This document shows, piece after piece, positions 11,799 to 39,033 of a DNA stretch of 63,530 nucleotides. Both the position numbers and the translations under genes were made by a program. How positions within the stretch are numbered: the first letter of the stretch is position 1; every line of letters begins with the position of its first letter. The notes beneath the pieces were generated by a model. It was not told where the DNA came from, made no database searches, and saw only the letters and a list, made by a program, of their open reading frames with translations. The stretch comes from an uncultured Clostridia bacterium (GTDB lineage: Bacteria > Bacillota > Limnochordia > DTU080 > RSA5), in contig CAYRIY010000001.1 in assembly GCA_964424335.1 (NCBI GenBank), forward strand, positions 60,340-123,869, written 5' to 3'.

Positions 11799-12236
11799 TT
11801 GCCGTACGTCGAGCGATCGACGGTGATTTCAGCGGACGTGAACACCGTATATCAGTTGGCGAGGCGCATGGAGGACTTCCCCAAGTACATGCCCGACGTG
11901 AAGGACGTAACCGTGCTCGAACAAGATGGGAACGGGACGACGACACGCTGGCATGTCCATGTGATTGGGCGCGACTTGAAGTGGACTGAGCGAGATACGT
12001 TTGACGACGAGACGCCCAAAATAACGTACAAGCAGATCGAAGGAGACGTCAAGAAGTTCGAGGGCGAGTGGCGGTTCACCCCGGAGGCAGACGGCACTGT
12101 CCGGGTCGAGTTGACATGCGATGCGGAACTCGGCGTACCGATGCTCGATGCAATATTCAATCCGGTACTCAAGAAAGCCCTTGAAATCAACGTCGACAAG
12201 ATGTTGTCCGCGATCAAGGAGAAGGCCGAATCGTGA
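11799..12236 (+). CDS. SRPBCC (START/cyclase-dehydrase) family protein
   Basis: 145 aa. The pattern VERSTVISADVNTVYQLARRMEDFPKYMP...W...F.GEWRF is typical of polyketide-cyclase/dehydrase-like SRPBCC proteins. Confidence 0.7.
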   Translation: MPYVERSTVISADVNTVYQLARRMEDFPKYMPDVKDVTVLEQDGNGTTTRWHVHVIGRDLKWTERDTFDDETPKITYKQIEGDVKKFEGEWRFTPEADGTVRVELTCDAELGVPMLDAIFNPVLKKALEINVDKMLSAIKEKAES

Positions 12237-14497: not shown

Positions 14498-14505
14498 ACT
14501 TCAAA

Positions 14506-14552
14506 GGGCGCTTCGCCAAGCCGAAAGGCTTCGTCGAAGCGCTCTGTTTATT
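14506..14552 (+). terminator. Rho-independent terminator
   Basis: GCGCTTCG...(inner AAGCC-GAAA-GGCTT)...CGAAGCGC followed by TCTGTTTATT, 9 nt after the stop at 14497. Confidence 0.6.
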
Positions 14553-15189
14553 GTCGATCCATCATTGATATGGCGCTTTCCCCTCGGCGATCCAACCTTG
14601 CATGCACGTCAAATCACGAGCGTTCGAAAACAAAGCTGCTGAAAAACACACATGAATCTCGAAGAGAAGGCCCCTAGCCAGTCACCCGCCTACAATCTCA
14701 CGCATATTAAATAATTGAGAAGGAATCTCGGCATCGAGGTGTAAAGTAAAAGCTTAGCCTGAAGTGGGGTCCAAAGGTCGCATGTAGCATCACACTGATC
14801 GGAGACCTTGGAAGTGCGGGGGACCATCCACGTATCGCCATACCGTTCGACCCACCGACCAGGCACGCTGTTTGCAGTTGACAAATGCATCCTTAGATAG
14901 CAGAAGGTGTGGGAACGTCCTACGTTAGGCAGTCCCAACCGCTCACTTTTTGGAAACGTTAACGGCAAATGGCCAACTCGCCAAAAGTAACTCCGCCTTT
15001 AGCAGCCATTATCCCCGAATTCGGGGAGGACTGCATTCATATACGACGAAATGGTACATTCGTCGAAAGTTAAAACCGCTTTGCTCACTGTACATTCGTA
15101 TGATCACATTTGTGATAGGGCATGTCAGGTATGCCCACAAGGAAATCGCGCCCATTAAAAAATGCGATCGCCCGTGGGAGGAACCTGTT

Positions 15190-15258
15190 TAGCCCCGATG
15201 TAAGTCTTACGGGATGCCAAGGCGCCGCTTCGGCCGTCTCGAGGGGCTATTGTTTTCG
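15190..15258 (+). terminator. Terminator-like or attenuator hairpin in the leader of the 15.3-kb cluster
   Basis: TAGCCCC (15190-15196) pairs with GGGGCTA (15243-15249) across a 46-nt, internally pairing loop. It is followed by TTGTTTTCG and lies 54 nt upstream of the 15312 start. Confidence 0.35.
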
Positions 15259-15311
15259 TATAGAAAATAGAGCGCTTCAATGGATTCACGTCTAACGGGG
15301 GTGCGAATAGG

Positions 15312-17054
15312 ATGGTCGATGGACATCGAATTCTATCCATTTCAAAGCTGATTGCGGTCGTCATAGCGTTGGCTCTCGTCGTCTCGGCGCCGGCCGCCTT
15401 CGGCGCGTCGGGTCCTGACCTCCTCGGGCTAGCGGGCTTCGACGTTTCTCGCATCGAGATCGAACGCGAGAATCAAAGCGTTGTCCTGCAAAAGGACGGG
15501 GCTGAGTGGGATGTCGTGCTGCCGGTGCAGGATCGTGCGGATCAACAGGCGGTGACTAACCTCCTCAATCGGCTTGCCAATTTGACGATTGCAGACGAAC
15601 TCTCGGGCGATCATCCGGAGTTTGGATTTGATCCTCCGAGGGCGATCGTACGCTTGGTTGATCGAACGGAAGTATCAAAAGAGCTCTTGATCGGCAACCT
15701 CCGCTCTCCGGTGAGCCTTTTTGTCAAGGCCTCCGATTCGGACGTCGTATACGCCATCAGCAACGTATCGCTCGCCGGAATCGGCGAATACCCCATGGCG
15801 TTCGTCGACTCGAACCTGATGCGCGTCAACCCCGATGACGTATCGAGAATCCGGGTTGAGAGCGCCATTGCTACGGACGACGACGATCGCCCCGACGTGA
15901 TCCAAATTGAACGAGAAGGGGCGGCGTGGGTCTTCGAAAGCGGAGCCGTCGCCTTTGACGTCAACCACTTCTTGAGAAGCGTGCGCCTCATCCAAGCATC
16001 CGGACAAATCGAGTCCGGATACGCCGGTGCACAGTTTTACCCGGCGCCGGGCACGACCCGCCTCACCCTCGATTTTGAGGAAGGCACTCAGGTCGTGTTG
16101 GACGTTGGCACGGCGACCGACGACGGACATCACTATTATTTCCGCGTATCCGGCCGTGATGACATTTATGTGGTTCCGGCATTCCACGCACAGCATATCG
16201 TTCGCCAAGCGCTCGGCATCAACGACAGTCTTCTCTCATTCGATCCGGAGCGTGTCAAAGAGCTTTCGATCAGCGCAGGGCCTGAGGGCACTCGGACCGT
16301 GTTCACGCGCAACAGCTCCGGGGCGTGGGAGTCCAATCGCACCGTCGTCTTTAACTTCGAGCCGCTCCTCGATGCCGTCCGGTCCGTTGGGGCCAATCGT
16401 CGACTTCCCGAACAAGAAGGCGTCGATTACGGGTTTGGCACCGATCCAAACGCGATTGATGTGAACGTCGTCTTCACGGACGGCAATCGCCTCACACTTT
16501 CCTTGGGAGCGCCGGTACAAGATGGCTCTGAAGTTTACCTGAAGACTTCGTCCCGAGACGGCATCTACGTCGGACCTGCGTCCGCCGCCGATGAGTTGCT
16601 TGACGCTGCCTCGCGGGTCCGGTCAAGGCTCTTTCCTGCATCGCTTTCCGACGTGACCTATATCCGCATCCAGCGCGGATCGGGATCCCCTGAAGGGACC
16701 TTGATCGAGCGCAGCGGCGACGGCTGGGTACGAGCCGGCACGAGTGTCGACGCCTCCCGAGTGGAGACGCTGGTAAACGCGCTCGTGGGCCTTGGCGCCG
16801 ACTCGTTGCCTCCCTTGCCGGACGACCCGAATGAGCTAGGGTTTTATCCAAGCGCAAACTCGACGCGGATTACGGTGGGCTTCAGCGACGACACGGAGCG
16901 GTATCTAGATATCGGCGCAGCCGTCCAGGTCGGTTCGGGCTGGTTTGCGACGACGAGCTACTACGCGCACGTCTCCGACTTGGAAGATACCGTGGCGTTC
17001 GTCAGAGAACAGGTTATTCGAAACATCGTGAATGCAGCCGGAGCTTTGGAATAA
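15312..17054 (+). CDS. Secreted protein with four tandem ~130-140-aa repeats (DUF4340-like)
   Basis: Signal peptide ...ALALVVSAPAAFGA. Four modules each start V(S/T/K)xI.I and contain ...W..., a helix (LLNRLANL / LRSVRLI / LLDAVRSV / LVNALVGL), a GF.P.. motif and ...G..D.IY(V/A). Architecture as I remember for DUF4340. Confidence 0.7.
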   Translation: MVDGHRILSISKLIAVVIALALVVSAPAAFGASGPDLLGLAGFDVSRIEIERENQSVVLQKDGAEWDVVLPVQDRADQQAVTNLLNRLANLTIADELSGDHPEFGFDPPRAIVRLVDRTEVSKELLIGNLRSPVSLFVKASDSDVVYAISNVSLAGIGEYPMAFVDSNLMRVNPDDVSRIRVESAIATDDDDRPDVIQIEREGAAWVFESGAVAFDVNHFLRSVRLIQASGQIESGYAGAQFYPAPGTTRLTLDFEEGTQVVLDVGTATDDGHHYYFRVSGRDDIYVVPAFHAQHIVRQALGINDSLLSFDPERVKELSISAGPEGTRTVFTRNSSGAWESNRTVVFNFEPLLDAVRSVGANRRLPEQEGVDYGFGTDPNAIDVNVVFTDGNRLTLSLGAPVQDGSEVYLKTSSRDGIYVGPASAADELLDAASRVRSRLFPASLSDVTYIRIQRGSGSPEGTLIERSGDGWVRAGTSVDASRVETLVNALVGLGADSLPPLPDDPNELGFYPSANSTRITVGFSDDTERYLDIGAAVQVGSGWFATTSYYAHVSDLEDTVAFVREQVIRNIVNAAGALE

Positions 17055-17082
17055 AAAACTCGGCCGGCACTGACACGGAGGG

Positions 17083-20000
17083 ATGGTCATGGACAGTAAA
17101 GCGCTGAAAGGAAAGAGGTTCATCGGCATCGGCATCGCATTGATGTTGATGGCTCTCCTGGCGCCGACGATCGCGGGCGCACAGACTTCAAGCTCCGCCG
17201 CAGAGACTGCGGCGCCCGTTGTGGACGATTTCTTGGCGCAATTCGACATGTCGCGCTTACTAGAGCCGCTGTACGCCGAAGCCATGCCCGAGTGGGAGGC
17301 ACAAGGGCTTCGTCCCGTGTCAGACTTCTATCTGGAAGTAAACGGCGCCGACTTCGTCATGCACGAGGGTCAGACGGAGCCCCGGACTGTGAACGAGTTT
17401 GAGGGCCTTACGGGCGAGATCCTCCTGTGGGAGGAAGAGGACGACACGTACCATTGGGATATTGAGGTGCCCGAGACCGGCCTATATTGGATCGGCTTCG
17501 AGTATTATCCCCTCCCGGGCAAACGCGCCTCGGCGATGCGGGACGTGCGCGTGAATGGAGTCTATCCATTCAGTGAGGCCCGACGTCTAACCTTCGAGCG
17601 CGTCTGGCGCGACGCCGGGCTTCCCCAGCAAGACAACCAGGGTAACGATATCCGCCCACGCCAGATCGAAACTCCGGCGTGGCAATTCAAGTACTTCGAA
17701 GATCCCGAAGGCATGTACATCGATCCGTTTTACTTTCCGCTCGAGGCCGGTGTAAATAGGATTACGATCCACTCGATCCGTGAGCCGATGGCCATTCGGC
17801 GGATCGTAGTTCGGTCGGCAGAGCGCCTTCCAACGTATGCCGAAGTGGCTCGTACCTATGCTGAGAAAGGTTATCGAGAGGTCAAGGACGTCGCCATCAA
17901 GATTCAAGCAGAGACTCCTTACCTAAAGTCGGATCCGACCATTCGCGCCGAATTTGGGTTTGATCCTCTCTCCGATCCGCCTTCCGAAGGGTATTGGCGA
18001 CTGAATGAGTTTGGCGGTTGGCGATGGCGTAAAGGTGGACAGTGGGTCACTTGGAAGTTTACGGTCCCTGAGTCCGGTCTTTACAAAATCGGCATCAAGA
18101 GCATTCAAAACTGGCGTCACACGCCTTCAGCGCGCTCGGTTCTCATCGATGGCGAGTTCCCCTTCGAAGAGATGAAGCACGTTGTGTTTTCCTACGATCG
18201 ATACTGGGGCATCAACGCCATTGGCGATCGTGACGGCAATCCATACCTCTTTTACCTCGAAGAGGGCGAGCATACGATTACGATGAACGTCAAAGTCGGC
18301 GACAACGCCGAGACGATCCGCGTGCTCGACCTTACCACACGAGAGCTTTCATATATTGGACGCGCCATTACGTACATCACCGGCCCCGACCCAGATCCCT
18401 ACATGGAGTGGGAAGTTCACAAGCGGATTCCGGGCCTCTTGCCCAAGCTCGAGGAGATTCGGACGCGACTATTGGTCGAGGCGGATCGCATTCGCAGTTA
18501 TGCCGGAAAGAACGTCGACATTGCTGAAGTTTTCAACCTGACAGCCCATCAACTTAAGACGATGATCGACGACCCGTACAAGATCCACACGCGCATCAAC
18601 GAGTTCGGTGAGATGCAGAGCCGTCTGGGCTACTACGTGCTTGACATGCGTTACTCGCCGCTCTTGATCGACTACTTCTACATTGCGGGGCCCGATGAGA
18701 AGTTTCCGCAGGCCAAGGCGCCGTTGTTCGAGCGGATCAAGTATCAAGTATATGGCTTCCTCGAGTCCTTCACAAAGGATTACACCGGAGTCGGCAGCAT
18801 TTACGACGAGAAAGAGGCCTTGGAGTTGTGGGTGGCCTGGGGTCGTGAGTGGGCCATGGCGATCAAAGAAATGATCGAAGAAGACTTCACGCCAAATACG
18901 GGCATTCCGGTGAACGTCAACTTGGTGCCCGCAGGCTCTCTGACGGCGCAAGGCACGTCGGTCATCTTGCTCGCCGCCGCTTCCGGCAATGCGCCAGACA
19001 TCGTCTTTGGCGCTCAGCAAACGCTGCCTGTCGAGTTTGCCATCCGCGGCGCGGTCGTCGACTTGACGCAGTTTGACGACTTTGAAGAGGTCATCACGCG
19101 GTTCCGCCCGGGGATGTTGACGCCTTACACGTTCCGCGACGGCGTCTTCGCTCTGCCCGAGACTCAGTCGTTCAACATGATGTTCTACAGAATCGACATC
19201 ATCGAGCAGCAGATGGGACTCAAGCCGCCGGAGACATGGCAAGATGTGCTCGAGATGTTGCCTGAGCTTCAGCAAATGGGTATGAACTTCTACTACCCAA
19301 GTCCGGCCCAAGGACCCGCGGCCGCGCTCAGCCTGGCTCCGTTCCTATACCAATACGGATCGGATTTCTACACGGACGATGGCCTGCGTTCACGCCTGGA
19401 TACGCCCGAATCATTGCAGGCATTTAGATTCTGGACCGACCTTTGGGCTCAGTTCAAAATTCCAATCGAAGCCAACTTCTACAACCGGATGCGTACAGGT
19501 GAGATGCCGATCGGCATTGCCGACTACTTCACGTACGTCCTCCTGTCGACTGCAGCGCCGGAGCTTACCGGATGGTGGAAGATGGTCCCAATTCCGGGAA
19601 CGCGCACGGCCACCGGTGAAATCGACCGTTCCGCCGGCGGCAGCTCGACTGCGGTGACGATCTTTACTGACTCTGACCGTCAGGAAGACGCATGGGAACT
19701 CATGAAGTGGTGGACCAGTACGGAGATCCAGACGCGCTTCGCAGAGGAGATCGAAGCGTTGATCGGCGTAGAAGCCAAGTGGAATACAGCAAATATCGAA
19801 GCCTTCAACAACCTGCCTTGGCCGGTCAGCGACCTGGAATCCATTCAGGAGCAGTGGCGCTGGTTCCGTGAGAAGCCGGTGGTACTTGGCGACTACTTTA
19901 CGCCTCGTCACGTGGTGAACGCTTGGAACCGAGTCGTGCTCGAAGGGATCAATCCCCGAGAAGCGATCGAGCGGGCGGTTGAAGACATCAATCGCGAGCT

Positions 20001-20121
20001 CATTCGAAAACAGGAAGAGTTCGGCATCGAGATTCCGGAAGATATGAGACGAGAACTCTTCAGAGGCATCAACACGACCGGAATACGGGGAACGTTGCAA
20101 TCCCGACCGGGAGACGAATAG
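17083..20121 (+). CDS. Giant (1012 aa) extracellular solute-binding protein: two CBM-like modules plus a family-1 SBP domain
   Basis: Signal ...LLAPTIAGAQ (no Cys). aa ~85-245 and ~270-415 are paralogous (WDIEVPETGLYWIGFEYY..RDVRVNGVYPF vs WKFTVPESGLYKIGIKSI..RSVLIDGEFPF). aa ~560-1000 look like a typical sugar SBP. Confidence 0.85.
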   Translation: MVMDSKALKGKRFIGIGIALMLMALLAPTIAGAQTSSSAAETAAPVVDDFLAQFDMSRLLEPLYAEAMPEWEAQGLRPVSDFYLEVNGADFVMHEGQTEPRTVNEFEGLTGEILLWEEEDDTYHWDIEVPETGLYWIGFEYYPLPGKRASAMRDVRVNGVYPFSEARRLTFERVWRDAGLPQQDNQGNDIRPRQIETPAWQFKYFEDPEGMYIDPFYFPLEAGVNRITIHSIREPMAIRRIVVRSAERLPTYAEVARTYAEKGYREVKDVAIKIQAETPYLKSDPTIRAEFGFDPLSDPPSEGYWRLNEFGGWRWRKGGQWVTWKFTVPESGLYKIGIKSIQNWRHTPSARSVLIDGEFPFEEMKHVVFSYDRYWGINAIGDRDGNPYLFYLEEGEHTITMNVKVGDNAETIRVLDLTTRELSYIGRAITYITGPDPDPYMEWEVHKRIPGLLPKLEEIRTRLLVEADRIRSYAGKNVDIAEVFNLTAHQLKTMIDDPYKIHTRINEFGEMQSRLGYYVLDMRYSPLLIDYFYIAGPDEKFPQAKAPLFERIKYQVYGFLESFTKDYTGVGSIYDEKEALELWVAWGREWAMAIKEMIEEDFTPNTGIPVNVNLVPAGSLTAQGTSVILLAAASGNAPDIVFGAQQTLPVEFAIRGAVVDLTQFDDFEEVITRFRPGMLTPYTFRDGVFALPETQSFNMMFYRIDIIEQQMGLKPPETWQDVLEMLPELQQMGMNFYYPSPAQGPAAALSLAPFLYQYGSDFYTDDGLRSRLDTPESLQAFRFWTDLWAQFKIPIEANFYNRMRTGEMPIGIADYFTYVLLSTAAPELTGWWKMVPIPGTRTATGEIDRSAGGSSTAVTIFTDSDRQEDAWELMKWWTSTEIQTRFAEEIEALIGVEAKWNTANIEAFNNLPWPVSDLESIQEQWRWFREKPVVLGDYFTPRHVVNAWNRVVLEGINPREAIERAVEDINRELIRKQEEFGIEIPEDMRRELFRGINTTGIRGTLQSRPGDE

Positions 20122-20133
20122 AAACTTGGGGAG

Positions 20134-20172
20134 TGTCGGCTCCGTCCGCGTCGCGCACCGTCGGAGCCGACA
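20134..20172 (+). other. Intercistronic stem-loop (11-bp perfect stem) after the SBP gene
   Basis: TGTCGGCTCCG-N17-CGGAGCCGACA, 13 nt after the stop, with no U tract. This resembles mRNA-stabilising hairpins between SBP and permease genes. Confidence 0.5.
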
Positions 20173-20214
20173 GGTAGGATCTAGGCGAGTCAAGGTCAGC
20201 AGGAGGGATTCCAG

Positions 20215-21174
20215 ATGGCACAAGCAAACCCAACGGTCGTGTCAAGGACTGACGCGGATCGCTTGACGCTCTCGGCTCGGCTTGGTGAGCTATGGAGGCA
20301 AGTTAAGCGATACAAGGCCGGATACTTGTTCATGGCGCCGTTCATGATTTTCTTCATCGTGTTTACGGTCGCTCCGGTGCTCACCGCAATTTATTTGAGC
20401 TTCACGTATTTCAACGTGTTGCAACCGGCAAACTGGATCGGGCTTACGAACTACCGCCTTCTGTTTCTTGCGGATGACATCTTCCTTAAGTCACTACACG
20501 TAACGGTTGTCTTCGCGATCCTCACTGGTCCGGTCGGCTTTATGCTTTCGTTCATTATTGCGTGGCTGATCAACCAAGTGAAGGTGCGCCTCGTATACGT
20601 GGTTGCGTTTTTTGCTCCGTCGCTCAGCGGCGTCGGTATGGCGTTCATCATGAGGATCTTCTTCTCGAACGACCGGTATGGGTACCTAAACAACTGGCTG
20701 ATCAACCTCGGTATTTTAGACGAACCATTTCCTTGGCTGTCCGACATCGACACGATGTTGGGCGTCGTGATTGCCGTGCAATTGTGGATGAGCATGGGGC
20801 CGGCCTTCTTGGCGTTCCTTGCCGGGTTGCAGCAGATTGATGAAACGGTGTTTGAAGCAGGCAAGGTTGACGGCGTCAAGAATCGAATTCAGGAACTTTG
20901 GTTTCTCACTTTGCCGTTGGTTAAGCCGCAGTTGGTGTTCGGCGCAGTGATGGCCGTGGTAGGCGCGTTTTCGATGTTTGACATCGCGTCGGCGATGGTT
21001 GGCTTCCCCAGCCCTGAATATGCTGCGCACACGATCATGGCTCACCTGTATGACTATGCGTTTTTGCGATTTGAGATGGGCTATGCTTCCGCAGTCTCAG
21101 TCATCATGTTTCTCATGATGTTCGGTTTGAGCGGCATCTTCCGTAAGATGTTGTCCACGAAGGGCGAGTATTGA
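20215..21174 (+). CDS. CUT1 sugar ABC transporter permease (MalF-like), pair 1
   Basis: Six TM segments. EAA loop EAGKVDGVKNRIQELWFLTLPLVKP. Confidence 0.9.
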   Translation: MAQANPTVVSRTDADRLTLSARLGELWRQVKRYKAGYLFMAPFMIFFIVFTVAPVLTAIYLSFTYFNVLQPANWIGLTNYRLLFLADDIFLKSLHVTVVFAILTGPVGFMLSFIIAWLINQVKVRLVYVVAFFAPSLSGVGMAFIMRIFFSNDRYGYLNNWLINLGILDEPFPWLSDIDTMLGVVIAVQLWMSMGPAFLAFLAGLQQIDETVFEAGKVDGVKNRIQELWFLTLPLVKPQLVFGAVMAVVGAFSMFDIASAMVGFPSPEYAAHTIMAHLYDYAFLRFEMGYASAVSVIMFLMMFGLSGIFRKMLSTKGEY

Positions 21175-21237
21175 TAACGGCGGGAGCACCCGTGCGGATC
21201 GAAGTTCGCTAAAAGCTTAGTCGGGAGGGGATTTGGC

Positions 21238-22113
21238 ATGGGCACACTGGTGCCTAGTTTGCGGCGAAAGAACAAGGTTGAGCGTGAGCCAATATGGATC
21301 TATGTGTTCTTGACGATCGTCGGTACGGGGATGGCCTTGCCGATGTACTTGATGGTGGTTCAGTCCATCAAACCGATCGAAGAACTGTTCCTGTGGCCGC
21401 CTCGGTTTTATGTGATGAGGCCTACACTCGAAAACTACACCGACCTGGTGGTTGCCGCGTCGCGGGCCTGGGTCCCGTTCTCGAGGTACATCTTCAATAG
21501 TGTCTTCGTCACCGCGGCAAACGTGATCTCGTACGTGCTGATCTGCTGCATGGCGGCGTATCCGCTTGCGAAAATGAGGAAGATGCCGCTCGCGATGCCG
21601 ATCTTTAACGCATGCCTTGCGGCGCTCATGTTTGCCCCTCAGGTCACCGTCATTCCCAGGTACCTGCTCGTATCGAGCCTTGGACTGGTCGATACTTATT
21701 GGGCGCTCATCTTGCCGGGGCTCGGCGGATCGTTCGGAGTCTTCTTTATGAAGCAGTTCTTGGACCAGTACCCGGATGCGCTCCTGGAAGCCGCCCGAAT
21801 CGACGGCGCCTCCGAGTGGGGCCTATTCACGAAAGTGATTATCCCGCTCACGCGGCCGGCGTGGGCGACGCTGATCATCTGGCAAGCGATGCAGATTTGG
21901 CGAGACACGTGGTCGCCGATGGTCTTTACCCACAGTGAGGCGATGAAGACGCTTCCACTCGCAGTTCAGACCATGTTTTCCGGAGATTTGGTGGTAGCGC
22001 GGCAAGGCGCTCAAGCGGCTGCGACGTTTTTGGAATCCGCTCCGCTTATTCTCCTCTTCATCATCATGCAGGCGCGAATCATCAGCACCATGGCCCATGC
22101 GGGGATCAAATAA
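21238..22113 (+). CDS. CUT1 carbohydrate ABC transporter permease (MalG-like), pair 1
   Basis: Six TM segments. EAA loop EAARIDGASEWGLFTKVIIPLTRP. Confidence 0.9.
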   Translation: MGTLVPSLRRKNKVEREPIWIYVFLTIVGTGMALPMYLMVVQSIKPIEELFLWPPRFYVMRPTLENYTDLVVAASRAWVPFSRYIFNSVFVTAANVISYVLICCMAAYPLAKMRKMPLAMPIFNACLAALMFAPQVTVIPRYLLVSSLGLVDTYWALILPGLGGSFGVFFMKQFLDQYPDALLEAARIDGASEWGLFTKVIIPLTRPAWATLIIWQAMQIWRDTWSPMVFTHSEAMKTLPLAVQTMFSGDLVVARQGAQAAATFLESAPLILLFIIMQARIISTMAHAGIK

Positions 22114-24270
22114 ATGGGGGTGCCGAATATGAGACGTCGAATGCAGAGAGCACCAAGGAGGGGTATTGCGGAGATGGCCTTGTTCCGTTTGGCGATGACC
22201 GCCGCGATCGTTCTGTTGATGAGCGTTGGCGCCCTCGGAGCCGGGTATGGCTTTCACATTCAAGAGGGCGACCGCGTCATCACTGCAAATCGGAATGCGT
22301 CGAGGCTCGTCCCGTCGCCTAAGCCGTACGTCTTTGAGCGGTCCTTTGAGTTCCTTGGCTTCAACGGCCCTCAGGACATCTTTTACGACGAGGACCGCGC
22401 TGAGCTGTGGGTCGCCGACACCGGCAACAATCGCCTGGTTCGATTGACGAGAGACGGCGAGTTCATCAGCGAGATCAGGAGCATCGTCGGTGGCGATAAT
22501 GCGGAAGTTCAACGGCTTGGCGGCAGAAACTTTCGCAACCCTGAGGGTCTGTTCGTAAACCCGGAAGGCGAGGTGTTCATCGCTGACACCGGGAACAAGC
22601 GGATCGTGCAGCTTACTTCGTCCGGTGAATTGATTCGGATCTATCCACAGCCCGAAAACCAGTTGCTGGGCGAAGACTTTGATTATCGTCCGACCAAGGT
22701 AGTCCAGGATCAGCGGGATTACCTATACGTAGTCAATCGGAGCGACTACCGCGGCATGCTCCTCCTCGACACGCGAGGGGAGTTTCGAGGCTTCTTTGCT
22801 CCCAACAAGGTCGGCTTTAGCCTTCGGCGGGTCTTGATTCGGATGTTTGCGACCGAGGCTCAGCGGGAGAAGCTCAGTAAGGAACTGCCTGCGCCTCACT
22901 CCAACATCGTGATCAGCCCAAATGGTTACCTATACTCGTCGACCACCTACGCCCCGGACAACCAGATCAAGAAGTTGAACGGCGTGGGCACGGACGTGAT
23001 GAACCGCTCGGCAATCGGCAGCAAGCGATACGGTTTCCCAATCACCAGAGCCGGCCGGGCAGTGAACGCTAGTTTTATCGACTTGACGGTGAACGAGCAC
23101 GGGATTATTTCCGCCGTCGACTCGGCCAACGGCATCGTCTATCAGTACGACGACGACCGGAATCTCCTTACGATGTTTGGAGGCAAAGGGGAGGAGAACG
23201 GCAAGTTTGGGTTCCCTTCGAGCATTGCCACGGACCGTGAGGGACTCCTATACATCCTGGACAAGGACCGGAACAACATTCAGGTGTTCCGACCGACCGA
23301 TTTCGCTCAGCTCGTCCACACCGCAAGTGAGCTTTACGTAGAAGGCTTCTATCAAGACGCCGAAGAGCCTTGGCGCCAAGCGTTGATGCTCAACACCAAC
23401 TACAACCTTGCGCATAGTGGCATTGCAAAGGCTTTTGAGAAGGTTGGACGTTGGGAAGAAGCGCTCATGGAGTATCGGTTCGGTCAAGATCGTGACGGCT
23501 ACTCCGAGATTTTCGGGAAGCTTCGGCACGAGTGGATTCGGGAGCACTTCGGTTTGACCGTGTTCCTGGTCTTTGCAGGTTTGGGACTTGCGATCCTCGT
23601 CGGACGCTTCTTCAAGTGGCTCCTCAACAAACCGTATGAGTCGTGTGGGCCGGTAGGCCGGGCAGTGCAGATGGTTTGGACCACGATGATGCATCCGTGG
23701 GACGGATATTGGATGCTAAAGCGCGAGGGTAAGGGAAGTCTCGTAACGGCGCTGGTACTGGTCGCGATCATGTTCGGATTACGTGTGGCCGACATCATGT
23801 GGACCAGCTATCAGATCGCAGACATCGATCCTCGGGACGCGAGCTTAGTCCTTGAGTTTGCACGCTTGATCTTGCCGTGGATCCTGTTCTGCGTGTGTAG
23901 TTACGGTGTGACGGCGATCTTCGAAGGGGAAGGTTTCTTCAGAGATATTGTGATCGCCACCGGCTACTCCCTTGGGCCGTACATTATGGTCAAGCCCATC
24001 GGAATCGCGCTGAGTCACATCCTTACCCGTACGGAGAAGTCGTACGTTGAATCGCTCGATATGATTGCTGTCGTTTGGATTGCAATCCTGATCGTCATCC
24101 ACATCCAAACGACGCACAACTACACGCTGCGCAAGACGTTTGGGACGGCTGCGTTGTCGATCTTCGGGATGATCTGTTTCATCGCCGTTGCCGGCCTCAC
24201 GTATACGCTTACCGACCAGATCGTCACGTTTGTGCGTGAATTGACGATCGAGCTTACAATTCGGGGTTAG
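22114..24270 (+). CDS. Membrane protein: N-terminal anchor, six NHL repeats (beta-propeller), TPR-like helix pair and a C-terminal Yip1-like 5-TM domain
   Basis: NHL motifs FNGPQDIFYDEDRAELWVADTGNNRLVRL, FRNPEGLFVNPEGEVFIADTGNKRIVQL and FGFPSSIATDREGLLYILDKDRNNIQVF. Hydrophobic helices at aa 22-44 and 480-700. The ATG abuts the previous TAA. Confidence 0.8.
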   Translation: MGVPNMRRRMQRAPRRGIAEMALFRLAMTAAIVLLMSVGALGAGYGFHIQEGDRVITANRNASRLVPSPKPYVFERSFEFLGFNGPQDIFYDEDRAELWVADTGNNRLVRLTRDGEFISEIRSIVGGDNAEVQRLGGRNFRNPEGLFVNPEGEVFIADTGNKRIVQLTSSGELIRIYPQPENQLLGEDFDYRPTKVVQDQRDYLYVVNRSDYRGMLLLDTRGEFRGFFAPNKVGFSLRRVLIRMFATEAQREKLSKELPAPHSNIVISPNGYLYSSTTYAPDNQIKKLNGVGTDVMNRSAIGSKRYGFPITRAGRAVNASFIDLTVNEHGIISAVDSANGIVYQYDDDRNLLTMFGGKGEENGKFGFPSSIATDREGLLYILDKDRNNIQVFRPTDFAQLVHTASELYVEGFYQDAEEPWRQALMLNTNYNLAHSGIAKAFEKVGRWEEALMEYRFGQDRDGYSEIFGKLRHEWIREHFGLTVFLVFAGLGLAILVGRFFKWLLNKPYESCGPVGRAVQMVWTTMMHPWDGYWMLKREGKGSLVTALVLVAIMFGLRVADIMWTSYQIADIDPRDASLVLEFARLILPWILFCVCSYGVTAIFEGEGFFRDIVIATGYSLGPYIMVKPIGIALSHILTRTEKSYVESLDMIAVVWIAILIVIHIQTTHNYTLRKTFGTAALSIFGMICFIAVAGLTYTLTDQIVTFVRELTIELTIRG

Positions 24271-24281
24271 GGTGGTCGCCA

Positions 24282-26501
24282 ATGATGCAGAGACGTAGAG
24301 CAAACTGGATTTCGACATGTCTAGCACTGGTCTTCGTTGCACTTTTGGCGACGTTGGGTGCTGCGGCGCAGGAAATCGAGATTGGAGGCGGCACCCTCGA
24401 AGGAGGCGAGAGGCTCGTTCCCGATGGGTTCCTCCTCGTGGCTGAAAATGCCAATCTGCAGCTTTACATCGAGCCGGATGTGACGCAGTTCATCGTGTAC
24501 GACCGGAGGAATGGAAAGCTGTGGCGGACCAACCCACCGGGGCCGCACGATCGCATTCCGAGCGCTTTGTGGCGCACACACGCACAGTCGCAGATCACGT
24601 TCAGCTACACGGACGCCAAGCGGCGTCAGATCAAGCAGACTGACCCGCTGACGGAAGGCGCGACGGTGACGTACGAGCCGATCCGGGACGGGGTGCGCGT
24701 CGTGTACACGATGAACACACGCGGCTTCGTCATTACCACCGATTACATCCTCGGACCGGACTATCTGGAGGTTAGGATTCCGGACTCCGGACTGCAGGAG
24801 AACGACGAGTTCGTCATTGTGTACCTCGAGCTGTTGCCGTTCTTCGGCGCTGCTACCGACAACGACGAAGGCTACATGGTCTTCCCTGACAGCTCTGGTG
24901 CGATCGCTCCGTTCCATTCAGATCACGGTCGGTATGCGAAGCAGTTCGAAGAGTACGTATATGGGCCTGAGGACTACCCGTTTGTCGAGTACGATCCGAT
25001 GAGGCCGGTCAATCGGCAAGTGCCGATGCCGATCTTCGGACTAAAGCACCACGACGGAGCGTTTCTTGGGGTGATTACCCAAGGCGAGTACGATGCAAAG
25101 GTCGTGGCTGCGCCTTCCGGATACATCGTGGACTACTACCGGACGAATGCCAAATTCGTGGTGCGACGTGAGTACCTGGCGCCGCTAAGACGGAATGCCA
25201 ACGTCCAGACGGTTGAGTCGAGACGTATTGCCGTCGATCGTGCCGTGCGGTACTACCTGCTGCCGGAAGATCGAGCAAGCTACACGGGAATGGCGCTTCG
25301 CTATCGAGAGCACTTGATCGACACACTCAACCTGCAACCAGGTAGGGTAGCTGGGGACGATGGGATCGCGCCGATCCACATTCGGATTTTCCAAGCGGTG
25401 TCCCAGCAGCAGCTCGTCTTTGATACGCTGATTACGCTGACGACGTTTGCTCAGGCGAGGGAAATCGTGGAGACCCTGAAGGCAAACGGTGTCAAGGAGC
25501 TCGACGTGACGCTCGTAGGGTGGACGCACAAAGGTTATGCCGGCCGGTATCCGCGCAGGCTCCCGGTGTCCGGACCCCTTGGTGGCGAGGCGGGTCTGCG
25601 GGCGTTCGTACAGTGGGCAAATGAACAAGGCGTAAGGGTATACCTAGACGACAACTACGTGGATGCGTACGAGGACAACGGAGGATTTTCGACCCGCACC
25701 GACGTCGTGCGCAGTCCTGCAAAGCTTCCGATCAGCGGATTTGGGATCGGCTTTGCCGGCACGCGCTATATCTTGAGCCCCGGGATCGCTCTGCGCGACT
25801 ATGCGTCTCGGGACATCCCAAGGATCGCTAACTTTGGCGTGAACGGACTCGACTTTGAGCGGTTCGGGTGGACGTTGATCTCCGATCGAAACGCGCACTA
25901 CACGGCTGAGCGCTACCAGGTGGCCGAGACGTGGTCCGAGATCGTGAAGTTGGCCCGGAGCCACATGGGCGGAGCGATCATCCAAGGCGGGAACATCTAT
26001 ATGCTGCCGCTGGCGGATAAGGTGTTGCGGGCGCCGATGGAGGATACGACACACCTCTTTGCCAGCAGGAGCATCCCGTTCTACCAGATCGCCGTACACG
26101 GTATCGTTCCTTACCACGGCTGGCCCGGCAACCTGCGGTCCGAGCCTCGCAGGGAGTTCTTGAAGAACGTAGAGTACGGCTCGTTGCCGGTGTTTGAGCT
26201 AACGTACGAGGACTCGTCGAAGTTGAAAGACGCTGAGCGGTATAATGTGCTCTTCAGTTCCCAGTACGCCGTTTGGGAGGATACGGTCCTGGAGGAGTAC
26301 AGGATTCAGGGCGAACAGATGGGCTATCTGCAAGACGTTGCCATCGTTGACCACAACGAGCTTGACAACTTGGTCTACGAGACGGTTTACGAAGATGGCT
26401 CGAGGGTCGTCGTGAACTACCGCCGTACAGAGTGGACCGATGGAAATGTGGTTGTCGGTCCCCTCGACTTCGTCCATATCGGAGGAGGGATTCGGGATTG
26501 A
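24282..26501 (+). CDS. Secreted 739-aa protein of unknown function (DUF5696-like)
   Basis: Signal peptide ...ALLATLGAAAQE. No motif I can assign to a characterised enzyme family. Size and neighbourhood match what I remember of DUF5696 genes in Paenibacillus-type clusters. Confidence 0.65.
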   Translation: MMQRRRANWISTCLALVFVALLATLGAAAQEIEIGGGTLEGGERLVPDGFLLVAENANLQLYIEPDVTQFIVYDRRNGKLWRTNPPGPHDRIPSALWRTHAQSQITFSYTDAKRRQIKQTDPLTEGATVTYEPIRDGVRVVYTMNTRGFVITTDYILGPDYLEVRIPDSGLQENDEFVIVYLELLPFFGAATDNDEGYMVFPDSSGAIAPFHSDHGRYAKQFEEYVYGPEDYPFVEYDPMRPVNRQVPMPIFGLKHHDGAFLGVITQGEYDAKVVAAPSGYIVDYYRTNAKFVVRREYLAPLRRNANVQTVESRRIAVDRAVRYYLLPEDRASYTGMALRYREHLIDTLNLQPGRVAGDDGIAPIHIRIFQAVSQQQLVFDTLITLTTFAQAREIVETLKANGVKELDVTLVGWTHKGYAGRYPRRLPVSGPLGGEAGLRAFVQWANEQGVRVYLDDNYVDAYEDNGGFSTRTDVVRSPAKLPISGFGIGFAGTRYILSPGIALRDYASRDIPRIANFGVNGLDFERFGWTLISDRNAHYTAERYQVAETWSEIVKLARSHMGGAIIQGGNIYMLPLADKVLRAPMEDTTHLFASRSIPFYQIAVHGIVPYHGWPGNLRSEPRREFLKNVEYGSLPVFELTYEDSSKLKDAERYNVLFSSQYAVWEDTVLEEYRIQGEQMGYLQDVAIVDHNELDNLVYETVYEDGSRVVVNYRRTEWTDGNVVVGPLDFVHIGGGIRD

Positions 26502-27367
26502 AGCTCACACTTAGGCAGCGTCAGTCGATCAACGGGTTTCTGTTCATCCTGCCGTGGCTGATCGGATTCCTGGTCTTCGTGGCAAGGCCGTTCACGCACT
26601 CGCTCCGCCTAGCATTCAGCAAAGTCGATATGATGGCGGGTTTCAGCCTTAGCTTCGTGGGCTGGGACAACTTCAACGAGGCGTTCTTTATCGACGAGCG
26701 GTTTGTGCCAATCTTGGTGACGGTAATTCAAAGAAACCTCGTGGACGTGCCGATCATCCTGACATTCGCACTGTTCACGGCGTTCTTGGTTCACCAAAAG
26801 ATCCGGGGCGTCGCCCTATTTCGGGCGATCTTCTTCCTACCGGTCGTGATTGCGTCCGGCCTTGTGGTCGAGCGACTCTTCCAGCAGGAGGTCGGATCTC
26901 TCGAAGCGGTGGTCGGCCTCGACGTACCGACGCTGGTATACATGTACTTGCCGGCGCAGTTTGCCGATATCGTCATCGACGTGATGACGCGCTTGACGCT
27001 GATACTGTGGCGCTCGGGAATCCAGATCCTGCTCTTCATCGCAGGTTTCCAAGGAATTTCCGGATCGCTCTACGAAGCTTCCAGGATCGACGGCGCTACC
27101 GACTGGGAGATATTCTGGAAGATTACGTTGCCGATGTTGTCGCCGATCATTATCGTCAATACGATTTACACGATCGTCGACGGCTTTACGGATATCTTCA
27201 ACCCGATGGTCAACTTCCTGAGGACCGTAGCGTTCTCCGGTTCGTTCCGATTGGGTTACGCTGCGGCGTTAGGGTGGATTTACTTCCTGTTGATCTTCCT
27301 TTTGATCGGCGCGGTGTTTATCTCCTCAAGGAAGTGGGTGTATTACGGTGGCGAACGCGACAGTTGA
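26498..27367 (+). CDS. CUT1 sugar ABC transporter permease (MalF-like), pair 2
   Basis: EAA loop EASRIDGATDWEIFWKITLPMLSP. The preferred TTG start at 26498 overlaps the upstream TGA (ATTGA), with GGAGGAGGG 9 nt upstream. Confidence 0.9.
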   Translation: MKLTLRQRQSINGFLFILPWLIGFLVFVARPFTHSLRLAFSKVDMMAGFSLSFVGWDNFNEAFFIDERFVPILVTVIQRNLVDVPIILTFALFTAFLVHQKIRGVALFRAIFFLPVVIASGLVVERLFQQEVGSLEAVVGLDVPTLVYMYLPAQFADIVIDVMTRLTLILWRSGIQILLFIAGFQGISGSLYEASRIDGATDWEIFWKITLPMLSPIIIVNTIYTIVDGFTDIFNPMVNFLRTVAFSGSFRLGYAAALGWIYFLLIFLLIGAVFISSRKWVYYGGERDS

Positions 27368-28316
27368 GCCCCGCCGGGGTATGGAGACGAGGGAGAAGCA
27401 TCGGCTTTCAGCGACCGGCATACCTTGGACCCTCGTGGTGCTGAGGAAGGTCCAGCGCTACTTCTTCCTGGGCCTGGTCTACTTGCTCTTGATCGACATT
27501 GCCTTCGCATTCCTGCTGCCGGTGATCTACATGGCCTCATCGTCGCTCATGACGGTGCAGGACTTCCTCGATCCGGGCGTCTATTGGATTCCGAGGGCGG
27601 TGTACTGGGATAACATCGTCTTGGCCTTTCAGAGCATGAACTACCTCGTGGGGCTCAAGAACAGCGCAACGATCGTGCTGTTCGCCACCGCGGGTCAGAT
27701 CATCTCCTGTTCGCTTGCGGGATACGGCTTTGCAAGGTTCAAGTTTCCCGGGCGGGACCTCCTGTTCATGTTGGTCTTGTTCACGTTCATCGTGCCGCCG
27801 CAGACGATCATTGTGCCGCTGTTCATTTTGTACAGGCAGCTTGGATGGATCGACACGTTCATGCCCTTTACGGTGCCGGCATTCCTGGCGCACGGCTTGC
27901 GGGGATCACTGCTCGTGTTGATCTTCCGGCAGTTCTTCAAGAGACAGCCCTATGAGTTGGAGGAAGCGGCATACATCGACGGCTGTAGCCCTGTGCGCAC
28001 GTATGCGCAGATCATGCTGCCGCTCGCCCGTCCTGCGTTGCTCGTTGGATTCCTCTTCTCGCTCGTATGGCATTGGAACGACTACTACGAGCCGATGATG
28101 TACCTGATGAAGCCGCAGAACTTTACGGTGCCGCTGCGCCTGCAGATCCTGCAGCAAGGGTTGCAGGAGATCACCGGCGGCGCGGCAGGGGAGATCTTCA
28201 ACGAACCCCTGGTCATGGCGGCGTGCTTCCTGGTCGTCATTCCGCCGCTTGTGCTTTACTTGTTTGCTCAGCGGTTCTTCGTCGAGTCGATCGATCGTAC
28301 CGGCCTCGTCGACTGA
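27348..28316 (+). CDS. CUT1 carbohydrate ABC transporter permease (MalG-like), pair 2
   Basis: EAA loop EAAYIDGCSPVRTYAQIMLPLARP. The start is uncertain (GTG 27348 or ATG 27381). Confidence 0.9.
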   Translation: MANATVEPRRGMETREKHRLSATGIPWTLVVLRKVQRYFFLGLVYLLLIDIAFAFLLPVIYMASSSLMTVQDFLDPGVYWIPRAVYWDNIVLAFQSMNYLVGLKNSATIVLFATAGQIISCSLAGYGFARFKFPGRDLLFMLVLFTFIVPPQTIIVPLFILYRQLGWIDTFMPFTVPAFLAHGLRGSLLVLIFRQFFKRQPYELEEAAYIDGCSPVRTYAQIMLPLARPALLVGFLFSLVWHWNDYYEPMMYLMKPQNFTVPLRLQILQQGLQEITGGAAGEIFNEPLVMAACFLVVIPPLVLYLFAQRFFVESIDRTGLVD

Positions 28317-28467
28317 TCGAGAAGTCGCTCGAGGTGGCAGGATTTTTGCGCTCGACAATGTAATGTTCTATCTCCGAAGCGATTCGCCCCGCGGGTCCAC
28401 CGGCAACCGCCGGAGGAGCGTGGGGCGTTTTACTACACCATACGGTATTACGAGGAGTTGATGGACA

Positions 28468-29550
28468 TTGAGTAAGTTGAAGGTCGGCATCATTGGCAGT
28501 GGCGGCATCGCTAGGGGACATGCCCGCGCATATAAGGAGGTCCCGTACGTCGACGTGGTCGGCGTCTGCGATATCGTTCCGGGTAAGGCGAGGGAGTTTA
28601 TCGAGGCCGAAGGATTGGAAGGCGCCCAGGCCTTTGAAAATCACGAGGATCTTTTTGCACTCGGCGTCGATGCCGTGAGCGTCTGCACTCCGAACGTAGC
28701 ACACCACAGCATGTCGGTTGCGGCCTTGAATGCAGGCGTCCACGTGTTGGTCGAAAAGCCAATGGCGGTAACCCTCGACCAGGCTGTCGACATGGCTCGT
28801 GCGGCGAAAAAAGCGGACCGCATCCTCTCGATCGGGTTTCAGCCGCGCTATGATCCGAATACCAAGGTAATCAAGGACATTGTGCAATCCGGGGAACTAG
28901 GCAATATCTATTATGTCGAGACCGGAGGAGGACGCCGGCGGGGAATGCCCGGCGGCACCTTTATCAAACAGGAGATTGCGGGAGCGGGAGCGATGGCGGA
29001 CATCGGGTGTTACTCGCTCGATCTGGTTTTGAATGCGCTCGGTTATCCGAAGCCGCTCACGGTCTCCGCGGCGACATACAACTTCTTCGGCACGTCACCG
29101 AAGTACCATCCGCAGGCCGACCAGTTCGACGTGGAAGACTTCGGCGCCGCGCTTGTCAGGCTGGAGGGCGGGATCACGCTTCACTTCAAGATTTCTTGGG
29201 CCATGCACATGGATACGCTCGGCGCCACGTTTTTCTTGGGCTCTGAAGCAGGTCTGAAGTTGACGCCTGCAGGCTCCGGTCCGTGGAGCGGCGTTTGGGA
29301 CGGTGGTGTCGGCTCGATCACGTTGTACTACGACAAGCTTGGTCACATGACCGAGAGCCCGATCCCAGTGAAATCGCACCGGATCAACATCTTTGCCGAG
29401 AAGGTGAAGGACTTCGCTCGTGCGGTTCGTGAGGGTGATAAGGCGCCGATCCCGCCTGATGAGATCTTGAAGAATCAAGCGATCATCGACGGGGTGCTTC
29501 GGTCCGCGAAACTTGGCAAAGAAGTCGAGATCGTAATCCCCGAGATCTAG
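28468..29550 (+). CDS. Gfo/Idh/MocA-family NAD(P)-dependent oxidoreductase
   Basis: N-terminal Rossmann KVGIIGSGGIARGH; EKPMA motif (VLVEKPMAV). TTG start with GAGGAG upstream. Confidence 0.9.
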   Translation: MSKLKVGIIGSGGIARGHARAYKEVPYVDVVGVCDIVPGKAREFIEAEGLEGAQAFENHEDLFALGVDAVSVCTPNVAHHSMSVAALNAGVHVLVEKPMAVTLDQAVDMARAAKKADRILSIGFQPRYDPNTKVIKDIVQSGELGNIYYVETGGGRRRGMPGGTFIKQEIAGAGAMADIGCYSLDLVLNALGYPKPLTVSAATYNFFGTSPKYHPQADQFDVEDFGAALVRLEGGITLHFKISWAMHMDTLGATFFLGSEAGLKLTPAGSGPWSGVWDGGVGSITLYYDKLGHMTESPIPVKSHRINIFAEKVKDFARAVREGDKAPIPPDEILKNQAIIDGVLRSAKLGKEVEIVIPEI

Positions 29551-29590
29551 TCCCTGGCTTAGCCAAGGTGGTCTCATCGTCATAATCTCA

Positions 29591-29639
29591 AATAGCCCTT
29601 CGGTTGCGGTTTCGTTATAAACCGCGCTGGAGGGCTATT
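29591..29639 (+). terminator. Compound hairpin terminating the cluster
   Basis: AATAGCCCT...(inner GCGGTTT-N6-AAACCGC)...AGGGCTATT, 41 nt after the stop. The U tract is weak (TCTCCTT). Confidence 0.45.
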
Positions 29640-29732
29640 CTCCTTGTGGCACCGGGGCTTGATGGCTGGCATACCTTGATTTGAATCCCGGTGGGAGGAG
29701 GGGGGACCGCTCCAGAAGGGCGGTTAACTCTT

Positions 29733-33724: not shown

Positions 33725-33800
33725 TGGCAGGGGAGACAGGACTTGAACCCGCAACCTTCGGCTTTGGAGGCCGCTGCTCTACCGATTGAGCTACTCCCCT
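33725..33800 (-). tRNA. trnW: tRNA-Trp (anticodon CCA), CCA end encoded
   Basis: Reverse complement AGGGGAGTAGCTCAATCGGTAGAGCAGCGGCCTCCAAAGCCGAAGGTTGCGGGTTCAAGTCCTGTCTCCCCTGCCA folds as a cloverleaf: 7-bp acceptor stem, GCTC/GAGC D stem, anticodon loop CUCCAAA. Confidence 0.95.
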
Positions 33801-33896
33801 ACGGTGCTTCAGATCAATGACAACGACTACGCTGACTGAAGATAAGTATACCATCTGGGAGAGGACTCGGTCAACCCGACACTCAGCCGAAAGCAC

Positions 33897-34325: not shown

Positions 34326-34355
34326 GCTTGACTCCTTTTATGAAAGTGCTGGCCT

Positions 34356-35255: not shown

Positions 35256-35318
35256 CGCTGTACCGCCTTTCCAACTCGCATCGGCAACCGTCCGTCGATA
35301 AACTTAGGTCGCCACAAA

Positions 35319-36653: not shown

Positions 36654-36692
36654 TGCGCCTTGGCCTCCGGTCGCTATTGGACGAATTTCTGC

Positions 36693-38983: not shown

Positions 38984-39033
38984 TCTGATGGTCTTAGTAT
39001 ACGAATCGCATTTACCGGCGTCAATACCCACTT

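Follow-up and report, generated by a model that had tools for sequence, protein, structure and literature searches.

What kind of system is encoded by an operon that carries two pairs of sugar-type permeases and a single, outsized binding protein? This question is raised by nine same-strand open reading frames (ORFs) at positions 15312-29550 of a 63,530-nucleotide stretch of DNA from an uncultured Clostridia bacterium (contig CAYRIY010000001.1 of assembly GCA_964424335.1; the whole analyzed stretch is hereafter the window). In the textbook picture, an ATP-binding cassette (ABC) importer of the CUT1 type has one solute-binding protein (SBP), one MalF-like and one MalG-like permease, and an ATPase that is often shared. 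Our analysis identified a core of seven genes with a fixed order, namely a giant SBP, two permeases (P1 and P2), an NHL-Yip1 protein, a DUF5696 protein and two further permeases (P3 and P4). Since this arrangement recurs across two phyla, Bacillota and Chloroflexota, it goes far beyond chance. We consider it probable that the core is a conserved envelope machine for the capture, trimming and uptake of a carbohydrate, made of two co-inherited sub-modules and served by an orphan MsmX/MalK-type ATPase. The features of the locus are as follows:

14498-15311, + strand: non-coding leader of about 800 nt, with no long ORF and no Rfam family
15312-17054, + strand: secreted or anchored DUF4340 protein with four repeats (Pfam E=1.5e-40, 140 bits) and an N-terminal hydrophobic segment
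17083-20121, + strand: giant SBP of 1012 aa (Pfam SBP_bac_1/8 at residues ~590-890)
20215-21174, + strand: P1, MalF/UgpA-type permease (BPD_transp_1, UgpA-like, six hydrophobic segments)
21238-22113, + strand: P2, MalG/UgpE-type permease (BPD_transp_1, GlcU/UgpE/MalG-like)
22114-24270, + strand: NHL-Yip1 protein with a TPR-like helical region (Pfam NHL and Yip1)
24282-26501, + strand: DUF5696 protein (Pfam DUF5696, PF18952)
26498-27367, + strand: P3, MalF/UgpA-type permease (BPD_transp_1), whose TTG start overlaps the DUF5696 stop codon
27348-28316, + strand: P4, MalG/UgpE-type permease, start codon uncertain (BPD_transp_1 E=2e-16, UgpE-like)
28468-29550, + strand: cytoplasmic Gfo/Idh/MocA NAD(P)-dependent oxidoreductase (Pfam GFO_IDH_MocA and C-terminal domains), without an N-terminal hydrophobic segment
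29591-29639, + strand: stem-loop followed by a U-rich tract (RNA fold)

Related loci were collected through a scan seeded with an alignment of the giant SBP, using one genome per species, and the ORFs of each locus were labelled with the window proteins; the alignment of 36 DUF5696 members contains no conserved stretch of 7-10 residues. Full-length relatives of the giant SBP occur in at least 285 species genomes, from which 80 loci were retrieved. The complete module is present in 68 of these, in canonical order in 60 and in a circularly permuted form in eight, where NHL-Yip1, DUF5696, P3 and P4 precede the SBP, P1 and P2. Nine further loci are interrupted by contig ends and are consistent with the module as far as they can be read. 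The genes are closely packed, with a median gap of 5 nt and gaps of ≤100 nt in 94% of cases. The neighbourhoods of DUF5696 homologues with 47%, 31% and 28% identity show the same order, with NHL/TPR and Yip1 in the middle. Of the loci approached from DUF5696, nine had sufficient DNA upstream, and the module is present in each of them, even around the most divergent member (1251 aa, 23% identity). An earlier interpretation of this DNA, made from its letters and ORFs (the sequence-only reading), had named conservation of gene order as its key test, and that conservation is very strong (68/80 loci; 9/9 DUF5696-anchored loci). The same reading had treated the nine genes as one unit; the cluster is genuine, and its conserved part comprises seven genes.

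The carriers are hundreds of soil, compost and gut bacteria, ranging from Limnochordia and Paenibacillaceae to Chloroflexota, and the closest named relatives of the three large cluster proteins come from Limnochordia metagenome-assembled genomes (MAGs); judged by these best hits, the window most likely belongs to this class or close to it. The seven proteins diverge in step, as their distance matrices correlate pairwise (r = 0.86-0.97). Several genomes hold multiple divergent copies of the module; Paenibacillus thermotolerans has three complete ones (L061, L066 and L075), each in a different subfamily, consistently across components. The correlated distances and the consistent grouping of paralogues indicate that the module evolves as a unit, with old paralogous subfamilies. 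The substrate probably differs between these subfamilies, and the three P. thermotolerans copies suggest a separate substrate for each. In the most divergent module, the position of the giant SBP is occupied by a gene (L087:2524-5940) for a 1138-aa product without any Pfam SBP match; this is either an SBP of extreme divergence or a protein that has taken its place.

The permeases fall into two MalF/MalG-type pairs. NCBIfam models assign P1 and P3 to UgpA/MalF-like and P2 and P4 to UgpE/MalG-like proteins, and all four keep the EAA motif, which is canonical in P2 (residue 184), lies at residue 193 of P3 (TTG-start form) and residue 206 of P4, and takes the form of a conserved variant, YEAGxxDG...ITLP, in P1. 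This last protein is the most conserved component, with a mean identity of 59% between loci. Identity is 27% between P1 and P3 and 26% between P2 and P4, indicating that the pairs are old and not the product of a recent duplication. The description of the locus as a duplicated, "double CUT1" system therefore has to be replaced by that of two anciently diverged sub-modules kept together. No ABC ATPase adjoins the module in 86 related loci, and an ABC-ATPase-like ORF occurs within 10 kb in only six of the 86. As the sequence-only reading had reported, the cluster itself contains neither an ABC ATPase for the system nor a transcription factor; none lies beside it either, nor is there a suitable one in the 63-kb window. 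A dedicated ATPase or regulator elsewhere in the window was looked for and not found, and the only ABC ATPases there belong to an exporter and to a Zn/Mn ABC-3 system.

The giant SBP was modelled with AlphaFold2 (predicted local distance difference test, pLDDT, 86). The model has an N-terminal signal or anchor, two beta-sandwiches (residues 83-244 and 271-404), a helical bundle (408-523) that forms a three-helix stalk, and an SBP fold (528-990), so that the two extra beta-sandwich modules proposed from the sequence are seen in the structure. Foldseek matched the protein to oligosaccharide SBPs (E~1e-22), the C-terminal half reaching a target-normalised template-modelling (TM) score of 0.75-0.85, and the matched CUT1 proteins include those for cycloisomalto-oligosaccharides, sophoro-oligosaccharides, maltodextrin and cellobiose. 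The protein is thus an extracytoplasmic family-1 SBP, as found in CUT1 importers. Its N-terminal part gave sub-threshold but consistent matches to Golvesin_C (9/9 members) and to CBM35/CBM6 structures, from which we infer that the sandwiches resemble carbohydrate-binding modules (CBMs) of families 6 and 35. Few orthologues have a lipobox; as a rule they begin with a plain hydrophobic segment.

The NHL-Yip1 protein has a hydrophobic segment at residues 17-35 and five more in 477-692, and the N-terminal helix and the Yip1 helices hold the NHL propeller between them on the outer side of the cytoplasmic membrane. The nearest solved structures to the NHL domain are ligand-binding TRIM-NHL proteins and the PknD sensor domain. 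A lactonase or lyase function for this domain was rejected, as the similarity to SGL is only weak and the best structural relatives are binding domains. NHL and Yip1 are encoded by one fused gene in 36 loci and by two adjacent genes in 32 (fused in one P. thermotolerans copy and split in two), which implies a joint function. By pure inference, this function could be that of a scaffold or sensor.

The DUF5696 protein matches its Pfam family over profile positions 3-612 of 612 (561.8 bits, against a gathering cut-off of 25.6). The family comprises 4,209 clusters at 50% identity (E≤1e-30), a hydrophobic N-terminus is present in nearly all orthologues, and permissive Pfam scans of the 36 members returned no family besides DUF5696. 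The literature searched yielded no paper mentioning DUF5696. A profile of the 36 members matched two enzymes of glycoside hydrolase (GH) family 129 in the PDB, the Bifidobacterium bifidum alpha-N-acetylgalactosaminidase NagBb (5WZN; E=1.5e-14) and the Zobellia galactanivorans 3,6-anhydro-D-galactosidase DagB/ZgGH129 (5OPQ; E~1e-9). The AlphaFold2 model (pLDDT 89.5, predicted TM score 0.89) shows an N-terminal helix, a beta-sandwich (~50-330), a (beta/alpha)8 barrel (~365-660) and a C-terminal beta domain (688-733), and its best Foldseek matches are 5opq (E=7.6e-33, TM 0.63/0.70) and 5wzn (E=9.5e-30, TM 0.63/0.74), followed at lower rank by GH101, GH31 and GH36. DagB has the same three-domain layout (PMC5698469). 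For a direct comparison, NagBb and homologues fetched from metagenomes were aligned, and this GH129 alignment was compared with that of DUF5696 by hhalign with posterior decoding. The two match over their full length (probability 99.8%, E=5.7e-27), at an identity of only about 15-22%. DUF5696 is therefore, by profile and fold, a remote homologue of the GH129 retaining alpha-glycosidases, with a more distant likeness to GH101. This agrees with the proposal, made from the sequence, that it is a candidate glycosidase; the accompanying statement that the cluster lacks any known glycosidase motif is correct as far as Pfam goes, whereas profile and fold comparisons reveal the homology to GH129.

With regard to the active site, NagBb R454 corresponds with high confidence to R544 of the DUF5696 protein, and the acid/base residue E478 of NagBb corresponds to D579 (Asp in 30/36 members) with a posterior confidence of ~0.5. 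The conserved acids of the family are D203, D474, D535, D579, D/E621 and E631, and those of the barrel (D474, D535, D579 and E631) are kept in 30-35 of the 36 diverse members. Judged from these alignments, D579 is a plausible acid/base equivalent and D535 a candidate nucleophile. A profile of the C-terminal DUF5696 fragment was also run against the PDB for this mapping and gave no GH129 match.

In the mechanism that we favor, sub-module 1 would consist of the giant SBP and the P1/P2 translocator, and sub-module 2 of NHL-Yip1, the DUF5696 enzyme and the P3/P4 translocator. The beta-sandwich modules would hold a glycan chain at the membrane face, and DUF5696 would cleave or debranch it; its relatives point to an alpha-linkage as the most likely target. 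The products would then enter two different translocators, and one shared MsmX/MalK-type ATPase from elsewhere in the genome would power both of them. NHL-Yip1 may position the enzyme, the substrate or both beside P3/P4. In this lineage, the Gfo/Idh/MocA enzyme could perform the first catabolic step on the imported sugar in the cytoplasm, and the DUF4340 protein would be an added envelope accessory. The GH129-like enzyme, the oligosaccharide SBP fold and the conserved gene order all support the earlier idea of a system for capture, processing and import of a glycan. That idea had been phrased as a monoderm counterpart of a polysaccharide utilization locus (PUL). Cultured Limnochordia are diderm (PMC11456536), so the module probably faces the periplasm here and not the cell surface. 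The phrase is thus imprecise for this DNA, whose closest named relatives are Limnochordia, although monoderm Paenibacillaceae carry the module too.

Several points weigh against this reading, and they are given here with the alternatives on which some of them bear. The whole of it is built on sequence and models, the physical link between NHL-Yip1, DUF5696 and P3/P4 is deduced from gene order alone, no specific ATPase partner can be named from the 63-kb window, and one Chloroflexota MAG has a single permease gene after DUF5696.

Further points come from the active site of DUF5696. The nucleophile of NagBb (D435; Asp486 in DagB) has the non-conserved T531 as its aligned counterpart, where the posterior is ~0.1; the conserved D535 (32/36 members) lies four residues from T531. 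In addition, NagBb W398, H320, D322 and H366 are unconserved, the aligned positions being G488, T410, V412 and D456, and the stretch that contains the last three (407-485) aligns to NagBb with high confidence. H320, D322 and H366 are altered in the quadruple mutant 5WZQ, and we take them to be metal ligands. W398 is the stacking platform of NagBb (PMC8106489). Because W398 and the residues of the quadruple mutant are not conserved, we file DUF5696 as a sister family and not within GH129; it is probably catalytic, with a different specificity. The same residues, the lack of a conserved acid at the nucleophile position in the profile alignment and the lack of an SBP of its own for sub-module 2 in Limnochordia and Chloroflexota would also suit a DUF5696 protein that is no hydrolase. 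It would then pass substrate to P3/P4 in the role of an SBP, either as a catalytically inactive protein for glycan binding or docking or as an enzyme of transglycosylase or lyase-like type. We regard this as unlikely, since the conservation of several barrel acids would make little sense in a protein without catalytic chemistry, the NagBb acid/base has D579 as its counterpart in the alignment and the complete three-domain GH129 architecture is kept.

The genes around the module supply another point. All neighboring ORFs were clustered and then searched with Pfam, and only three kinds recur: ordinary SBPs of ~470 aa, a Cache/HAMP histidine kinase with an AraC-type response regulator, and Gfo/Idh/MocA oxidoreductases. 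A small SBP is encoded directly 5' of the giant SBP in 22/31 Paenibacillaceae loci and likewise in several Clostridia-type loci, and in 0/48 loci of Limnochordia and Chloroflexota; these small SBPs are heterogeneous and belong to several unrelated subfamilies. Given this second, ordinary SBP in many Bacillota modules, the giant SBP need not serve both translocators. The sequence-only reading, in which two translocators share one SBP, thus fits Limnochordia and Chloroflexota, in contrast to most Paenibacillaceae loci and several Clostridia-type ones. Moreover, the SBP-P1-P2 part occurs alone (within 10 kb) in 3/80 loci, on the Chloroflexota chromosomes L034, L036 and L039, so sub-module 1 can stand alone, at least locally.

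These last two observations, together with a gene order that can be permuted at the sub-module junction and permease pairs that both look like complete MalF/MalG-type heterodimers, would agree with two independent CUT1 importers lying side by side, the second using an SBP encoded elsewhere and NHL-Yip1 and DUF5696 being passengers. We find this distinctly unlikely. The seven genes are adjacent in 68/71 uncut loci of two phyla and in all of the DUF5696-anchored loci, the one with 23% identity included; their products have diverged in parallel, even among paralogous copies of one genome; the permuted form still keeps the sub-modules adjacent; and no second SBP lies beside the module in the 48 Limnochordia and Chloroflexota loci.

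Two side observations concern SBPs and permeases near the module. The window contains, at 483-2954, a GGDEF diguanylate cyclase gene (483-1508) and then an orphan family-1 SBP gene (1686-2954) without adjoining permeases. This orphan was considered as the missing small SBP and rejected, as it shows only generic similarity (~22%) to the module-adjacent small SBPs, which are themselves heterogeneous. Also, eight loci (L013, L016, L018, L019, L024, L025, L059 and L076; several Chloroflexota and two Paenibacillus) have an extra MalF/MalG-type permease pair immediately upstream of the module, so that three translocators follow one another; in some of these loci a small SBP gene precedes the extra pair.

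A final point against the favored mechanism is that most modules have no other carbohydrate-active enzyme (CAZyme) nearby, which is unusual for a polysaccharide locus. An attempt to derive the substrate from flanking CAZymes was abandoned, as there is no universal partner and GH3, GH51-like, GH43, GH88 and GH38 enzymes occur sporadically. A self-contained module with one candidate enzyme, core proteins (above all P1) conserved to a degree that suggests a conserved substrate, and no attached regulator in this window are features that could also be expected if the module recycled or remodelled a glycan of the cell's own envelope or matrix, such as an exopolysaccharide, an S-layer glycan or a secondary cell-wall polymer, instead of foraging. 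We hold this to be rather unlikely in view of the catabolic context found elsewhere. The Paenibacillaceae operons are preceded by the Cache/HAMP histidine kinase, of a sugar-sensing type, and the AraC-type response regulator, a pair typical of inducible catabolic loci, and two Clostridia-type contigs place the module among GH26 mannanases, GH2 and an esterase. Furthermore, several genomes have multiple divergent copies, and a cytoplasmic sugar oxidoreductase often adjoins the module. On the two Clostridia-type contigs (L088:14621-21010 and L003:711-2216), the module lies amid GH26 mannanases with CBM35, a beta-mannosidase-like GH2, a GDSL esterase and a LacI regulator, a layout that resembles a beta-mannan utilization locus without an obvious alpha-galactosidase.

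The direction of transport also has to be considered. All non-permease core proteins are extracytoplasmic or membrane-bound, which would suit the export or assembly of a surface glycan, and the only bacterial precedent that we found for a Yip1-domain protein encoded, and presumably acting, with an ABC transporter involves an exporter: YknW of the Bacillus YknWXYZ system is a Yip1-family membrane protein that accompanies an ABC transporter (PMC4887032). In that system, however, YknYZ is a MacB-type exporter for a peptide toxin, whereas the partner in the module is a type I importer, and the Yip1 domain there either forms one protein with an extracytoplasmic NHL propeller or is encoded beside it. 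The module and its surroundings lack any glycosyltransferase, flippase or polymerase, and BPD_transp_1 permeases of the MalF/MalG type that work with an SBP are established as importers. An export or assembly role is therefore very improbable.

Going beyond the favored mechanism, the seven proteins could assemble into a single supercomplex that couples import to processing outside the cytoplasm, with sub-module 2 as an importer without a classical SBP. A membrane-tethered GH129-like enzyme on a propeller/Yip1 scaffold would feed its product straight into P3/P4, and the giant SBP with its CBMs would retain the polymer and supply P1/P2. We would not expect this stronger version to be right, yet we rate it as a serious minority possibility. 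If true, this would add a new way of delivering substrate to type I ABC importers and establish a new glycoside hydrolase family that comprises >4,000 sequence clusters.

Compared with known systems, the favored carbohydrate-uptake module shares with CUT1 importers of the MalEFGK2 type (TCDB 3.A.1.1) the family-1 oligosaccharide SBP fold and the MalF-like and MalG-like permeases with EAA motifs, and with MsmX-dependent Firmicute systems the absence of an ATPase gene from the operon. It differs from the canonical CUT1 composition of one SBP and two permease genes in having four permease genes, which form a MalF-like/MalG-like pair twice over, in the size of its SBP (~1000 aa, with two beta-sandwiches and a helical stalk before the SBP fold) and in the obligatory NHL-Yip1 and DUF5696 proteins encoded between the permease pairs. 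DUF5696 resembles GH129 in its profile and three-domain fold, and plausibly in the conserved Asp that aligns, at moderate confidence, with NagBb E478; unlike GH129, to which its identity is about 15-17%, it is a separate Pfam family, is always found within an ABC-transporter module and has an N-terminal anchor or signal. With PULs, both the Sus-like ones of Bacteroidota and those of Gram-positive bacteria with ABC transporters, the module shares the joint presence of a binding protein, a (here putative) carbohydrate-active enzyme and a transporter, with a regulator in some lineages. Of the components expected in a Gram-positive PUL, the window has a transporter and a candidate enzyme and no regulator, while Paenibacillaceae add the histidine kinase and AraC-type regulator. 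In contrast to PULs, the module has a composition that is fixed across phyla and not a variable mix of CAZymes, a single candidate enzyme, no SusC/SusD, and an NHL-Yip1 protein that has no PUL counterpart.

No description of the seven-gene module was found in the literature searched. The fixed architecture and the DUF5696 family thus appear to be undescribed, while each part, whether CUT1 importer or GH129-like fold, is of a known kind. The placement of DUF5696 beside GH129 and GH101 offers a concrete enzymatic hypothesis and could found a new CAZy family, and a fixed layout outside the one-SBP/two-permease picture raises the question of how a Yip1-anchored propeller and a giant multi-module SBP work together with two translocators. 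The module occurs in cultured strains of Paenibacillus and Cohnella, for example Paenibacillus favisporus DSM 17253, P. montanisoli RA17 and Cohnella nanjingensis DSM 28246, which makes it accessible to genetics and biochemistry. Since compost, digesters, soil and some gut communities are rich in carriers, the identity of the substrate would improve the prediction of carbohydrate utilization from genomes.

The two outer genes of the nine-gene cluster are accessories. A homologue cluster of the Gfo/Idh/MocA oxidoreductase is present in 17 of the loci analyzed, making it a frequent, non-obligate and variable neighbor. The DUF4340 gene is a lineage-specific accessory outside the conserved core, as its presence at this position, like that of the TPR gene downstream of the cluster, is confined to the closest relatives (L007, L008 and L173). 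DUF4340 genes usually adjoin uncharacterised GldG/ABC-2 transport systems. Such a context was rejected here, because no GldG or ABC-2 genes lie nearby, the upstream genes are unrelated and the downstream gene is that of the giant SBP. The ~590-aa genes downstream of distant modules were considered as cryptic DUF4340 equivalents and also rejected: the product is an SBP_bac_8 protein in L089, has a weak DUF3502 match in L002 and carries CBM65 in L003. Other large proteins are encoded directly 3' of distant modules, namely a DUF6259 protein of 699 aa (L172:14036-16135) and proteins of 593-997 aa without a recorded Pfam family (L089:16493-21087 and L171:16408-19401), and these may be further uncharacterised carbohydrate-active proteins.

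As for the boundaries of the cluster, the nine ORFs lie where the sequence-only reading had placed them, with gaps of 28, 93, 63, 0, 11, -4, -20 and 151 nt. Pfam agrees with every domain that it had proposed, and an N-terminal hydrophobic segment is present in every non-permease product except the oxidoreductase. The TTG start of P3 at 26498 is supported by a strong ribosome-binding site, GGAGGAGGGA, that precedes it. Two of the junctions depend on the choice of start codon, as seen from the calls in L173, a relative with 84% identity. Only with the most upstream starts do P2 and NHL-Yip1 abut as TAA/ATG (22111-22116) and P3 and P4 overlap by 20 nt (27348-27367), and L173 has NHL-Yip1 called 20 codons and P4 27 codons shorter. 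The hairpin at 29591-29639 is borne out as a strong fold followed by a U-rich tract (29545-29700 folds at -64.2 kcal/mol, z = -3.67, with 0/200 shuffles folding equally well) and is the probable intrinsic terminator of the operon.

The leader (14498-15311) presumably holds the promoter and any regulatory site. Neither a riboswitch or other Rfam family nor a good sigma-70 match on the + strand was found in it, and the single terminator-like match, at 15228-15244, is weak. Lacking a convincing ORF, the leader could contain an unrecognised regulatory element. The flanking genes, which encode an aminotransferase, an FG-GAP protein, an acylphosphatase-like ORF and DUF3792 upstream and a TPR protein downstream, are unrelated to the cluster.

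Elsewhere in the window, two ORFs of 482 and 422 aa (2951-4399, - strand, and 57803-59071, + strand) have no Pfam match at E≤1e-5. The region 33725-42020 contains a tRNA-Trp gene (33725-33800, - strand) and, within ~6 kb, a tyrosine-recombinase/phage-integrase gene (39287-40366) and a LexA-type S24 repressor gene (41271-42020), with a Zn/Mn ABC-3 transporter operon between them; this region may be the edge of a mobile element. Finally, just upstream of the cluster and not conserved with it, positions 12233-13711 encode the FG-GAP protein, a secreted-looking product in which FG-GAP repeats are combined with a copper amine oxidase N-terminal-like domain, a combination typical of Firmicute envelope proteins.

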